A stretch of DNA of 20,708 bases, taken from IMG/VR virus record IMGVR_UViG_3300045988_020424; one strand, 5' to 3'. The translations under genes and the position numbers were made by a program. This document shows positions 1-17,184 of this stretch, in pieces (the stretch's first letter is position 1; every line of letters begins with the position of its first letter). Origin of the DNA: a virus. Lineage: Duplodnaviria; Heunggongvirae; Uroviricota; Caudoviricetes. Under the pieces are notes generated by a model. The model was not told the origin of the DNA and searched no databases. It saw only the letters and a program-made list of their open reading frames with translations.

Positions 1-105
1 AGGTTTCATTGGGGTATACGGTTCGCCGTTGTGATTGACAACATAAAGCTCTGCGCCGTGGAATGGCACGTTGATAGTAGATACTGCTGTTGCTATACTC
101 GTCAT
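1..105 (-). CDS. Antirepressor (Ant-like) N-terminal fragment; gene continues beyond the window start
   Basis: Minus-strand ATG at 103-105 with the frame open to the window edge. Translation MTSIATAVSTINVPFHGAELYVVNHNGEPYTPMKP shows the F-x-G-x-x-L-x-V-V...G-E-P-Y pattern I associate with phage antirepressor N-terminal domains. It lies directly downstream of the Arc-like gene, as in P22 immI. RBS is weak. Confidence 0.5.
   Translation of the reverse strand, partial: MTSIATAVSTINVPFHGAELYVVNHNGEPYTPMKP
71..99 (+). promoter_or_regulatory. Candidate sigma70 promoter for an antisense small RNA (TTGATA, 17-bp spacer, TATACT)
   Basis: -35 TTGATA at 71-76 and -10 TATACT at 94-99 with a 17-bp spacer. 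It sits inside the 5' end of the ant-like gene on the opposite strand, and predicts a start near 106. Confidence 0.3.
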
Positions 106-180
106 GTCGTTAATTCCTATACGTAGTTTTACGATACTGAAGCCCTGACGGTCTGGCCACCGTGGGGCTTCGCTGTTTTA
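106..180 (+). ncRNA. Candidate antisense small RNA (analogous to P22 sar) covering the ant RBS and the arc-ant junction
   Basis: Predicted transcript from the promoter above to a GC-rich hairpin (GAAGCCC 139-145 pairing with GGGCTTC 165-171, plus inner TGACGG/CCGT pairing) followed by GCTGTTTTA. The region is complementary to the ant RBS on the minus strand. Inferred by analogy; no expression evidence. Confidence 0.3.
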
Positions 181-345: not shown

Positions 346-430
346 TTCATATCTCCTAATATGAATGGTTGGCCACACGATGGAAGGATTGTCCATTGAA
401 GGATAAATCCCCGTGGTACAAGTTTTGGTA

Positions 431-452
431 AGCCCGCGCTGCGGGCTTTTTT
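431..452 (+). terminator. Rho-independent terminator, plus-strand orientation
   Basis: Stem AGCCCGC (431-437), loop GCT, stem GCGGGCT (441-447) followed by a T-run through 452. No A-run precedes it, so it is not bidirectional. The same stem sequence recurs in the terminator at 17825-17849. Confidence 0.6.
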
Positions 453-490: not shown

Positions 491-516
491 TTAAAAACAA
501 GGCCGCGAAAGCGGCC
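491..516 (-). terminator. Rho-independent terminator of the small membrane-protein gene and late operon (minus strand)
   Basis: Perfect hairpin GGCCGC-GAAA-GCGGCC at 501-516. On the minus strand it is followed by TTGTTTTTAA (plus 491-500). Confidence 0.55.
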
Positions 517-530
517 TGTGACATGTCACG
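517..530. repeat. Copy 1 of 14-bp motif CGTGACATGTCACA (minus-strand orientation; 12-bp perfect palindrome GTGACATGTCAC at 518-529)
   Basis: Read directly from the sequence. It contains the TGA stop codon of the membrane-protein gene (526-528) and abuts the terminator hairpin at 501-516. Confidence 0.85.
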
Positions 531-1018: not shown

Positions 1019-3493
1019 TTATTGCGGAGTGACATCCTGTGGTCGCCACCAGTATGTCTGGTTAAACTCTTTCTTCGAACGTTGCTCCATTTTACGCAAA
1101 TAGCCTGGTGAAAAATACTCCTGCATCTGGTTAAAGATCATGTGATCGAGAGCCGCCTTCAAGTACCAGAGATTCGCACCAGGCATCAAACCTTTCCCCA
1201 GCTTCACCAGATCACCACCAGTCTGCTCACTCTTCCCTTCCACAGCATTTAACGGTATGCCCTGAGCAATCTTCACTACGTCATCAACCAGACCAGCTAC
1301 CGGGCCAAGCATCGACGCCAGCGCGCCGCTTCCGTACCTAGTGTGATCTGACAATAAAAAGTCACCGTAAAGGCCAAGACCACCACCTTTCAGTAGAGCA
1401 CCAAGCCAGAATTTTGCGGCATCTTCTCCTGTCATCTCTCGAGGATTACGACCAGACGCAAGGTCGTTAAGTTGCTGCGACAAAGCGCCAAGAATGGTCG
1501 TACTGGCAATAAACGTCGCAATATATGCCGCACGCCCACCAGCAGACGGCATACCCATAGCGCGTGACCAGTGACGCATAACAACCGAGATAGGGAACGA
1601 TTTAAACAGGAAAACACTTCTCGTTAATTCACCTTTCCATGTTCCACGCTGAATACCAGAACCGGTTATCAGTTGCTCACGTGCTCCCGGTGTAATAACA
1701 GCCATATCAACTTCTTCAGTTACGGCACCGAGCAGTTTACGCATTGCCTCAAATTTCACGCGTTCAGGCTCACCAAGATGTTTAACTGCTGAATCAGGGA
1801 TACGCATAATGCTTTCCGGTGTCAGCATCGTATTATTACCGTTCCCCCAGTCCTCCTGTTTCGCCAGCTTCCATACGCTCCAGTCTGTGTCAGTAATCCC
1901 TTTGCTTTTCAGGATACGAAAATCAGAGTCATCGAGGCTACGAAGGTCTGGTGTCCGTGACACTACTTCTCCCAGGCTTCCCATCATGGTTACGCCATAG
2001 GCGCGCTTGTGCGCATCTGACCATGCTGTAAGCCCACTGACACGCATTACCGCCGTTGCCGCCCAACGAGACACTGACGGCCCCATATTATCCATCGCCC
2101 AGCGGTTAACGCTGCCAAGTAGAGATTCCATCGCCAGACCAGCGCGGCGCGCCCGCGCAAGTTCTGTACGGTTCGTTGGGTCCATAGCTTCAAGCTGGTT
2201 GCGGAATAACTGGTTCATTGGAAGGTTGGTAACCTTCGCAGACAGATACATGGTTCCAAGATCAGAGAACGATGACAGCAACGCGGATCCGAGTCTGCTG
2301 GCAACCAGCCAGTTGCGGATATTGTCAGACCATCGCGCGATGTGCGGATTCGCTACAGGCTGTGTCTTTCCGGAAATAAAGTTGTACAGATTCTCTGTGT
2401 TGTTCGCCAGCCGCTCGACTTTACCGGTTTTACTCGGGTTAGCTGTTGCCGTTTCTGCCTTCACCTGATCAAGAAGAGAGCGGAAAACATGATCGGGGTT
2501 TGGGCCATATGTTTCCACCAGTGCAATATCTTTACTGATACCTTCCAGGTGACCGACCATGATTTCCCATAGAGAGCGATCGCCATAAAGTTGCTGATAT
2601 TGCAGATAGGAATCTGCATCTTTGAAATGTATCTGTCGTGATGCATTACCCCGGTTAGCACGTGCGCCGGAAATTCGCATTCCGGTATCAGTAAGCTTAT
2701 TCAGCCCACCAGTAGCGATCGTGTTATAAGCCTCTCCAAGAAATGCAGACAACTCGGCATCGTTCATCAGTTGTCCATCGACTCGGGTATAATATTTGCG
2801 ATCCAGCTTACCTATAACATCGCTAACCCACTTATCCTTTGATACCGCCCCAACCTTTTCCATAGAATGATGTTGAGGGAGCCCCCAGTTTTCGAGATAG
2901 CCAATGTCCCCACCAGCATCATTAAACCGGCGGCGCAGTAGCTCTGTCACTTCTCTCCACGCCTTAGCACCTTTTCTTGCTTTAGCATTGCCAGTATTTT
3001 GCCCTCGCATTTCATATACCAGGTCACGCACGCCAGCTTCATCTTCAAACAGGCCAAAAAAGCGAGGATCAACTGCTTCAAATGCCTCCTGCAATTGACT
3101 CAATGCATAATCACGAGTGGCTTTTGTTCTGGATTCAACAGAGAGGAAATTCGATTTACCGTCTGCATTAAAAGCAATAGTACGGTTAAGAGCGCCAAGT
3201 TTCCCATCAGCCCCTTGATAGCTATTGATAAATTTATCCAATCTCTGACGTGCGGCTATAGTGAGGGCCACACGACGTTTCTTTAATGCCGCTTCTCGCT
3301 GTAATTCTTCAGATGCCAATTGTGCTGCTCGATATAGCCGCTCTGATTCGGAAAGTTGTCGCCACGACATAGGGTCATCACGAGCAATGGAGCGCATATT
3401 TCGATAAATGCGGTCTTCAATGTTCTGTATTTCTCGCGCCGTTAACATGCGCTGCGCCGCCTGCTGAACCGCTTGTATACATTCCTGTCTCAT
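1019..3493 (-). CDS. Large virion internal / ejection (core) protein, 824 aa
   Basis: Long ORF with ATG at 3491-3493, packed 5 nt after the stop of the upstream gene. Third of three consecutive large proteins after the tail tubular genes, a position analogous to T7 gp15/gp16 or P22 ejection proteins. Function is inferred from position only. Confidence 0.8.
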   Translation of the reverse strand: MRQECIQAVQQAAQRMLTAREIQNIEDRIYRNMRSIARDDPMSWRQLSESERLYRAAQLASEELQREAALKKRRVALTIAARQRLDKFINSYQGADGKLGALNRTIAFNADGKSNFLSVESRTKATRDYALSQLQEAFEAVDPRFFGLFEDEAGVRDLVYEMRGQNTGNAKARKGAKAWREVTELLRRRFNDAGGDIGYLENWGLPQHHSMEKVGAVSKDKWVSDVIGKLDRKYYTRVDGQLMNDAELSAFLGEAYNTIATGGLNKLTDTGMRISGARANRGNASRQIHFKDADSYLQYQQLYGDRSLWEIMVGHLEGISKDIALVETYGPNPDHVFRSLLDQVKAETATANPSKTGKVERLANNTENLYNFISGKTQPVANPHIARWSDNIRNWLVASRLGSALLSSFSDLGTMYLSAKVTNLPMNQLFRNQLEAMDPTNRTELARARRAGLAMESLLGSVNRWAMDNMGPSVSRWAATAVMRVSGLTAWSDAHKRAYGVTMMGSLGEVVSRTPDLRSLDDSDFRILKSKGITDTDWSVWKLAKQEDWGNGNNTMLTPESIMRIPDSAVKHLGEPERVKFEAMRKLLGAVTEEVDMAVITPGAREQLITGSGIQRGTWKGELTRSVFLFKSFPISVVMRHWSRAMGMPSAGGRAAYIATFIASTTILGALSQQLNDLASGRNPREMTGEDAAKFWLGALLKGGGLGLYGDFLLSDHTRYGSGALASMLGPVAGLVDDVVKIAQGIPLNAVEGKSEQTGGDLVKLGKGLMPGANLWYLKAALDHMIFNQMQEYFSPGYLRKMEQRSKKEFNQTYWWRPQDVTPQ

Positions 3494-14783: not shown

Positions 14784-16459
14784 TGTGATTGCCCACCCTG
14801 ACCACTAACTGCATTCGCCATAGCTGACAAAACACTCGGATCCGAAGTTTTAGCTTCGCTTAGCGTCTTGGCACCCTGTGCCGCCGCCATCCCCATCGCC
14901 ATCATTTGTTGCTGCTGTTGTTGCTGTGCCCGTTGCTGGCGAGCCTGCTCAACCTGTTCCTGCGGAACAATGACGGTTGGAGACACTCCGGACATATCAG
15001 CGAATGCATCGATCGCCTGATCAACGTTGAGTTTGTCGAGAGCTTCTGGTTTCGCTTGCGCAAGTTGACCAATGAAGTTAACCGTGGACGCCAGACTGGA
15101 CAGGCCGATAGACTTCTGCGCCTGAGCCATGACGGAAATGTATTCGACCTTCAGGGGCATACCTTCCATCACGTCTGGCGGTGGCGGCAGCATGTTTTTA
15201 CGCACCATCATCGAGAAAGAGCGGTCAATGAGAGGATTAAGACATTCGTCGTTCAGGCGCTCCAGAACCGGCCCCAACATCAGAAGTTTTTCTTCTTTCA
15301 TTTCGATCACCGCTTCCACAGGCATCGAGCGGGTATTGATGTTCTGCAACATCATGAACAGATCGACAAAGTAGGCGCTGTTAATGATTTGACGAGTGTC
15401 CTGAATGTCTGCCACCAAATCTGCTGTACTGGGGTTAACCAGATAAGCAGGCCTGAAACCATCCTGACCAGTAATCTGATCGATATACGTGATGTCGCCA
15501 GGAAGAAGGGAGGCGCGCTGATTCTTGAGGGAAGTCGGAGCAACCATCGGCGGATTGGTGGCTTTATCAATCAACTGCGACTTGCGCTTCTGGAGAAGCT
15601 GCAATGCCTTAACAGGTCCAAGCGCCAGCATACCCGGGCATGATGATCCATAAACATCTTCGCCGTTAACTTCCCAGCGCGGAGCCATAATTGGAAACTC
15701 ATCGAATCCGGACTCACGCAACAACTTGTCGTTATCGCCACCAACCTCGTAATAAACCGATTTGAATGGCTTGTTCTTGCTATCCAGCTTCGATGTATCG
15801 CGGTCAATGTTCGGGTAAACCGAATGCATCACTTCAATCCACTTCTCGTAGGTGCCGCTTTCCCACATGCTTTTTACGGATTCGCTGACGTTATTTAGCC
15901 CGAACTCCTGAACAAGCTGACGAACAGTCATAGAGAACTTGCGAAAACAGGTGTCCACACTGCCACGAGGTGAGTTAGCCAGGTAGTAACTGCCTATCGG
16001 GAATGGCATTGTGCGAATGATGTCCTCGTCATCCTCCAGCACCGCCATTGCACCAGTGCTGTATGTGCCGAGGCTTCCGTATAACTGCGGAAGAGACTGG
16101 TAGAGATTCGACTTATTGAACATATCGTTCATGCGGTTCTGCACCGCCTCGAGCCACAACTTAACAGGACCATAATCCATCATTTCAGGATCTGGCGTAG
16201 CCAGGCGAAACCACGGACGCGCAGGGCTTGTGATGCCTGACATCATGCCGCTGGCGAGAGTGCGCGCCGCCATAGTCCCGGTCGAATCAATAATGCGTGT
16301 ATTGCGTCGATCGTTACGGTTGACTTCAGAAGTCAGAAAGCGGGAACCACGCGGGTTGATGTAATCACTCAACTCGCGCCAGTGCGGCTCGAACGACTGA
16401 CGCTCGCTTTCAAGTTGTGCGAACTGTTTGTTCAATCGCTCTTTAGTTGTTTCCGCCAT
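14780..16459 (-). CDS. Portal (head-to-tail connector) protein, 559 aa
   Basis: ATG at 16457-16459 with RBS GGAG and 8-nt spacer. Size, Gln-rich C-terminus and position between terminase and scaffold/capsid fit a podovirus portal. Confidence 0.9.
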   Translation of the reverse strand: MAETTKERLNKQFAQLESERQSFEPHWRELSDYINPRGSRFLTSEVNRNDRRNTRIIDSTGTMAARTLASGMMSGITSPARPWFRLATPDPEMMDYGPVKLWLEAVQNRMNDMFNKSNLYQSLPQLYGSLGTYSTGAMAVLEDDEDIIRTMPFPIGSYYLANSPRGSVDTCFRKFSMTVRQLVQEFGLNNVSESVKSMWESGTYEKWIEVMHSVYPNIDRDTSKLDSKNKPFKSVYYEVGGDNDKLLRESGFDEFPIMAPRWEVNGEDVYGSSCPGMLALGPVKALQLLQKRKSQLIDKATNPPMVAPTSLKNQRASLLPGDITYIDQITGQDGFRPAYLVNPSTADLVADIQDTRQIINSAYFVDLFMMLQNINTRSMPVEAVIEMKEEKLLMLGPVLERLNDECLNPLIDRSFSMMVRKNMLPPPPDVMEGMPLKVEYISVMAQAQKSIGLSSLASTVNFIGQLAQAKPEALDKLNVDQAIDAFADMSGVSPTVIVPQEQVEQARQQRAQQQQQQQMMAMGMAAAQGAKTLSEAKTSDPSVLSAMANAVSGQGGQSQ

Positions 16460-17107: not shown

Positions 17108-17184
17108 GTGGCATTAGCTCAGTTGGACAGAGCAACCGCCTTCTAAGCGGTTGGTCGCAGGTTCGAATCCTGCATGCCACGCCA
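17108..17184 (+). tRNA. tRNA-Arg (anticodon TCT, reads AGA), 77 nt with encoded CCA
   Basis: Manual fold: acceptor GTGGCAT/ATGCCAC, D-stem GCTC/GAGC, anticodon stem ACCGC/GCGGT, loop CTTCTAA (U33, anticodon TCT, A37), variable loop TGGTC, T-stem GCAGG/CCTGC, T-loop TTCGAAT, discriminator G, CCA. D-arm and T-arm match E. coli argU as I recall it, with different acceptor and anticodon stems. Confidence 0.9.

Follow-up and report, generated by a model that had tools for sequence, protein, structure and literature searches.

A predicted sar-family antisense RNA opposite the ant ribosome-binding site of a phiV10-like prophage

At the start of a 20,708-nt stretch of Caudoviricetes DNA (hereafter, the window), a promoter-like sequence and a hairpin lie opposite the beginning of an ant-like gene, raising the question of whether they form a gene for an antisense RNA that restrains antirepressor synthesis, and whether that RNA belongs to the sar type. 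The sar RNA has been a textbook antisense RNA since 1987. It blocks translation of the antirepressor gene ant and was described in the immI region of Salmonella phage P22 (Liao et al., 1987; Wu et al., 1987; Schaefer and McClure, 1997; as cited in PMC2629481), and its expression was detected by RNA-seq during P22 infection (PMC13397905). A mobile 'ant moron' has also been described (PMC2629481). The preliminary description of the window had proposed a sar-like arrangement in a phage whose structural genes do not look P22-like, and both parts of this proposal can be examined by comparing the locus with P22, with its closest relatives, and with a broader set of Ant-encoding loci.

The region is framed by two minus-strand genes (Table 1). 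The ant reading frame fills the window from the ATG at 105-103 to base 1 (MTSIATAVSTINVPFHG...). It is 98.9% identical to the anti-repressor gene ant of phage TL-2011b, and the full-length TL-2011b protein matches Pfam P22_AR_N (PF10547) with 153.6 bits, only 35 in-frame ant codons (105..1) being contained in the window. Immediately upstream of ant and in one operon with it, the arc-like gene encodes a divergent ribbon-helix-helix protein that is 33% identical to P22 Arc and scores 12.8 bits against Pfam Arc, below the cut-off of 20.4; its counterpart in TL-2011b is annotated as an Arc-like repressor. The preliminary description had the plus-strand coordinates right, and the ant start needs correction from 104 to the ATG at 105-103. 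The RefSeq PGAP annotation of the identical E. coli prophage gene begins ant at GTG 69-67 (V13), and in TL-2011b and P22 the start is the ATG equivalent to 105. In-frame indels in relatives and the Shine-Dalgarno (SD) sequence at 118-114 favour the ATG at 105 as the probable start of ant, and PGAP often sets this start 12 codons too late.

Table 1. Coordinates of the features at the arc-ant locus of the window.
Feature	Position	Strand	Details
ant, first 35 codons (MTSIATAVSTINVPFHGAELYVVNHNGEPYTPMKP...)	1..105	-	Runs off window start; SD AGGAA 118-114
Psar -35 hexamer TTGATA (putative)	71..76	+	Overlaps ant codons 10-12 (ACT ATC AAC)
Psar extended -10 TGC-TATACT (putative)	91..99	+	Reverse complement of ant codons 3-5 (AGT ATA GCA)
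sar RNA (predicted)	106..178	+	About 71-73 nt; start at G106 by homology to the P22 sar 5' end
5' hairpin of sar (predicted)	106..135	+	Stem 106-110 with 131-135; MFE fold
Rho-independent terminator of sar (predicted)	139..179	+	Stem 139-171, G147 bulge, 6-nt loop, then GCUGUUUUA
arc-like gene, 55 aa	345..178	-	SD AGGAG 357-353 (-); stop TAA 180-178
Breakpoint 357|358, then last 24 codons of a 5'-truncated DUF4760 gene (358-431) and its terminator (430-448)	358..448	+	
Intrinsic terminator ending the minus-strand structural (late) operon (predicted)	500..517	-	About 150 nt upstream of arc; terminator scan

On the plus strand, both reading of the sequence and a promoter scan find TTGATA (71-76) and TATACT (94-99) separated by a 17-nt spacer, as originally noticed, and the -10 hexamer is extended by a TG at 91-92. 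The position inside the first codons of the minus-strand ant gene can be narrowed to codons 3-12. This putative Psar agrees with the sigma-70 consensus at 10 of 12 positions, with the 17-nt spacing and the TG extension, and leaves seven bases between the -10 and G106. Taken alone, the hexamer match is within chance expectation: the promoter scan of 1.5 kb returned three promoter-like sites against 2.0 expected, and the whole window contains two sites matching at 10 or more of 12 positions against 3.0 expected from shuffles, or one against 0.15 expected when the TG is required. Since the motif itself is within chance, the case rests on homology and on conservation among other sequences. These motif counts, which do not exceed those of shuffles, are also what can be said for a chance promoter-like match beside an unrelated terminator, but the Rfam match, the conservation and the covariation described below oppose such a coincidence and effectively refute it, leaving it a negligible probability. 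Two small plus-strand ORFs (31-126 and 71-148) were considered as coding sequences and rejected for lack of support and because they run antisense to ant.

Conservation was assessed in 80 IMG/VR loci chosen by internal Ant peptides only (near residues 100-120), a choice that is blind to the promoter and that provided 34 distinct ant 5' ends sharing one register. Among these, the third positions of ant codons 3 (AGT), 4 (nTA), 5 (GCA), and 11 (ATC) are invariant, and all other degenerate codons within codons 2-60 show third-position variation. Together, the four invariant codons make up the -35 core of Psar and its -10 hexamer with the TG extension. Residue 4 of Ant varies between I, V, and L only by way of -10 position 3, the hexamer reading TA[T/A/C]ACT in the 34 relatives, and the -35 reads either TTGATA or TTGATT in every one, around an unchanging codon 11. 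The preliminary description had staked its proposal on the hexamers being conserved in relatives, and they prove to be conserved in the 34 distinct ant 5' ends beyond what coding would need. Judged from these alignments, there is nucleotide-level selection for a promoter opposite the ant coding strand.

The same invariance could in principle reflect constraint on the initiation of ant translation, with the hairpin serving in the structure or processing of the arc-ant mRNA and with neither a promoter nor an RNA gene on the other strand. The invariant positions do fall within the first 12 codons, where selection at the mRNA level is common, and the complementary mRNA would form the hairpin equally well. 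Nevertheless, this explanation is very improbable: the invariant bases coincide exactly with the 10/12 consensus match, its spacing and its TG, and they line up with Psar as annotated in P22; only on the plus strand is the hairpin followed by the U-run; and the 5' helix starts at most three bases from the predicted +1 in 24 of 24 sar variants despite their differing sequences.

Two phages serve as natural controls for a promoter embedded in ant. In Salmonella phage Oslo, a siphovirus (L098 670-780), TTGATT-17-TATACT and the hairpins are kept, and in Shigella phage POCJ13 (L099 650-690) the Ant homologue is found without arc, without sar and without the 12-codon N-terminal extension. The Pfam P22_AR_N domain starts at residue 12 and does not include this extension, which houses Psar. 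These observations suggest that the N-terminal peptide of P22-type Ant may largely serve to house the antisense promoter.

The RNA that such a promoter would produce is recognized by the Rfam sar model. Scored with RF00262, positions 107-174 (+) align with the entire model (positions 1-68) and reach 44.8 bits, only 1.8 bits more than the gathering score of 43; the E-values are 1.4e-7 (local scan) and 2.4e-6 (whole-window scan). Together with one tRNA, sar is the sole Rfam family to pass in the window. P22 itself scores 97.8 bits with the same model, and a purpose-built covariance model assigns 58.6 bits to positions 106-181 of the window. On these scores, the window copy belongs to the known sar family as a divergent member close to the Rfam limit. 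The start that had been expected near 106 falls on G106, which adjoins the ant ATG, and the 3' end is predicted within the U-run at 175-178, where it meets the arc stop codon and overlaps its TAA. The RNA had been expected to measure 70-75 nt and to span the entire arc-ant spacer together with the ant ribosome-binding site; the predicted length agrees (Table 1), and the sequence is fully complementary to the 72-nt spacer, including the ant SD, which falls inside the RNA.

Two hairpins are predicted within this RNA. The first is weak, and its loop carries the anti-SD sequence UUCCU (114-118). The second is the strong hairpin with a T-run that had drawn attention to the locus; its arms (GAAGCCCU.ACGGU and ACCGUGGGGCUUC) give it a folding energy of -21.0 kcal/mol, and it is homologous to the annotated sar terminator of P22. 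A simple terminator scan did not list this hairpin, probably owing to the bulged G147. The fold z-score of the RNA as a whole is modest (-2.68).

The annotated P22 record supports the same reading. There, sar is placed at 15090..15021, its 5' end bordering on the ant ATG and its promoter Psar lying inside the ant codons, and in relative terms sar extends over 3091..3022, ant begins at 3092 and arc runs to 3023, a layout identical to that of the window. The proposed likeness to P22 immI is thus upheld by an RF00262 match above the gathering score and by the layout of the annotated P22 locus. The two loci share a promoter within the first ant codons with a +1 that abuts the ant ATG, -10 hexamers that align, an identical TTGCTATACT (TTGCTATACT..TCATGT being invariant in the alignment), two hairpins, the first of which carries the anti-SD in its loop, a terminator overlapping the arc stop codon, and antisense complementarity to the whole arc-ant spacer. 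They differ in that RNA identity is only about 66%, the -35 is better in the window (TTGATA vs GTGTTA in P22), the 5' stem differs in sequence, with changes that are compensatory, the terminator contains a bulge and a loop of 6 nt, and the N terminus of Ant is shorter by two codons. Taking promoter, homology and layout together, positions 106 to about 178 on the plus strand very probably constitute a sar-family cis-antisense RNA gene, predicted here and confirmed by sequence comparison as a homologue of P22 sar.

The structure of this RNA can also be followed across the family. All 24 distinct sar variants (24/24) fold alike, into a 5' hairpin with a stem of 5-7 bp, a short spacer and a terminator hairpin of 12-15 bp. 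The 5' stem begins at +1 in most variants and at +2 or +4 in a few, and the anti-SD lies in the loop region of the 5' hairpin in all 24, in some of them partly within a short inner helix. The 5' stem takes at least eight different sequences, e.g., GUCGU/ACGAU, GUCAAUA/UGUUGAU, GUCAGU/ACUGGC, and GUUGGU/ACUGAC. A U-run ends most variants and is interrupted (UUCAUU, UUUACUCAUU) in the L024, L036, L037, and L039 classes; the U-run of the L024 class is poor.

On a plain MAFFT alignment, RNAalifold found the terminator helix, with compensatory changes in 7 of 13 pairs, and did not recover the 5' helix, the 5' stems being misaligned. Because of this misalignment, a covariance model was built from eight relatives and 28 distinct sequences were realigned to it. 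In this alignment, which is fitted to the model structure and therefore inflates pairing, 96.2% of cells are standard pairs, compared with 28-49% after sliding the 3' partners by 1-3 columns, and 7 of 20 pairs have changed on both sides (42 cells). None of 500 shuffles reached the observed covariation score. In the 5' hairpin, three of six pairs show changes on both sides across the relatives, and in the terminator, which is 99% paired, four pairs do so. Covariation supports both predicted helices.

This family is poorly captured by the curated model. Most sar classes fall below the RF00262 threshold, and the model fails to reach the variants Kp899, L020, L024, L036, L039, L061, L069, and L086; the purpose-built model misses the L024 class. 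Among the IMG/VR loci L020-L086, sar forms a mosaic about 75 nt upstream of the Ant start (position 1501), with 5'-hairpin and terminator classes joined in differing combinations. Beyond the sar terminator the sequence switches abruptly, either to arc alleles or, as in CUS-3, to sequence without arc.

The phage that carries the window copy is of another kind than P22. Outside the arc-ant module, the window consists of a phiV10-type structural region with 97-98% identity to phiV10, which is a member of the genus Uetakevirus, to HEMP4 and phiv142-3, and to related phages. The claim that the structural genes do not resemble those of P22 has therefore held, and the host element appears to be an epsilon15/phiV10-like, Uetakevirus-like prophage, in contrast to the Lederbergvirus P22. 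A tRNA-Arg gene (anticodon TCT) at 17108-17184 (+) lies inside the minus-strand structural gene region and has annotated counterparts in related phiV10-like phages. An arc-ant module is found in many E. coli prophages, and phiV10-like phages with arc-ant are already present in databases. The closest relatives of the module combine it with the same phiV10-like structural background: TL-2011b (NC_019445) is 98.9% identical over 2-357, Psar and sar included, and the prophage of E. coli 2015C-4498 has an intact module that is 100% identical over 1-357. Unlike the window, TL-2011b and the E. coli prophages keep, upstream of arc, a Pant-like promoter (TTGACA-17-GACAAT), an operator palindrome (GCCCCACCGTGGGGC), and a divergent gene for a 143-aa Mnt-like protein (Pfam Arc).

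A short repeat is shared by sar and the region upstream of arc in relatives. The 12-mer CCACCGTGGGGC (window 157-168; L006 3157-3168 and 3363-3374; two matches vs 0.00 expected) lies in the 3' arm of the sar terminator and recurs in relatives within the palindrome that closely precedes the arc SD. CACCGTG also flanks the -35 of the relatives' Pant. One possibility is that the 12-mer is a repressor half-site; another is that it gives the arc leader a second site complementary to sar. Its second copy is deleted in the window.

This deletion belongs to a larger difference. Homology to the relatives stops at 357, just past the arc SD and 12 nt upstream of the arc ATG, and a DUF4760 fragment replaces the Pant, operators, and mnt-like gene that are present in all relatives examined; relative to P22 immI, the window copy is without Pant, Oarc, Omnt, and mnt. 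The junction 357|358 is absent from IMG/VR, GTDB representative genomes, JGI metagenomes, and 5,426 complete E. coli genomes, as well as from 10 contexts of the identical Arc protein. It represents either a recent illegitimate recombination or an assembly artefact. Upstream of arc, the promoter scan and a reading of 346-530 found no promoter-like site on the minus strand between 346 and 520. The stretch from arc to the end of the structural operon contains two strong intrinsic terminators that point towards each other, at 430-448 (+) and 500-517 (-). Trp-leader-like Rfam matches in the 430-517 region were rejected as terminator look-alikes, scoring 19-20 bits against a gathering score of 41. 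With no Pant in the window, read-through from the minus-strand structural operon is the only visible source of arc-ant mRNA if the junction is real, and the terminator at 517-500 (-), standing between the late operon and arc, may leave little ant mRNA to regulate.

It is in this light that the window copy might be seen as a true sar homologue that has become an idle relic, the recent rearrangement at 357|358 having removed Pant, operators, and mnt so that arc-ant is silent and sar regulates nothing. The replacement of the relatives' promoter and operator palindrome by a truncated DUF4760 gene, the lack of a minus-strand promoter-like site in 346-520 together with the terminator at 517-500, and the restriction of the junction to this window among the collections searched are all in keeping with such an outcome. 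The complete identity of 1-357 with the intact module of E. coli 2015C-4498 is also compatible with it, as an event that recent would have left no visible decay. Yet Plate, in addition to Pant, drives arc-ant transcription in P22-like phages, where sar was reported to act on those read-through transcripts (PMC12111858), and the module of the window follows the structural operon and shares its orientation. Moreover, if the junction is an assembly artefact, the module may be complete in the real genome. Such an idle relic is considered unlikely.

In the preferred reading, in which sar is functional, the course of events can be proposed by analogy with P22. A sigma-70 promoter embedded in codons 3-12 of the convergent ant gene would fire at G106, yielding an RNA of about 72 nt that would form two hairpins, with the anti-SD UUCCU displayed in the 5' loop, and the 3' hairpin would terminate its transcription at the arc stop codon. 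The RNA would then pair with the arc-ant mRNA and occlude the ant ribosome-binding site, lowering the synthesis of Ant without blocking arc. In a genome without Pant and its operators, sar would presumably be the main local brake on Ant. Two more far-reaching proposals, offered jointly as tentative and somewhat doubtful, are that immI in this phage may be a promoterless arc-sar-ant cassette fed only by late-operon read-through, with sar as the sole gate on the antirepressor, and that sar may be the tip of a wider mosaic family, with at least eight 5'-hairpin classes and several terminator classes, that accompanies P22_AR_N antirepressors in podo-, sipho-, and myovirus prophages.

Other small phage RNAs resemble sar in part. 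The c4 antisense RNA of P1/P7 immI is a small phage RNA that restrains an antirepressor (ant) by blocking translation and, in this respect, is like sar. However, c4 is a processing product of the same transcript, acting in trans at sites upstream; unlike sar, it is not a convergent cis-antisense RNA, has no promoter of its own inside ant, and is unrelated in sequence. In the whole-window scan, the Rfam c4 model gave no match at its gathering threshold. Likewise, lambda OOP and P22 a23, the latter annotated in P22, are short terminator-ended cis-antisense RNAs of temperate phages, but they target cII and gene 23, respectively, have other modes of action, and do not lie at the arc-ant ribosome-binding site.

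As a single copy, the sar gene of the window matters little for biology at large. Its use lies partly in annotation: sar is unannotated in the inspected records (TL-2011b and E. coli 2015C-4498), though arc and ant are annotated there, and the curated Rfam model misses most sar-like RNAs beside Ant homologues. The locus also illustrates that a promoter inside a coding region may be recognized by the loss of synonymous variation. Finally, the absence of Pant and mnt, if real, would provide a natural test of how far sar alone restrains the antirepressor.
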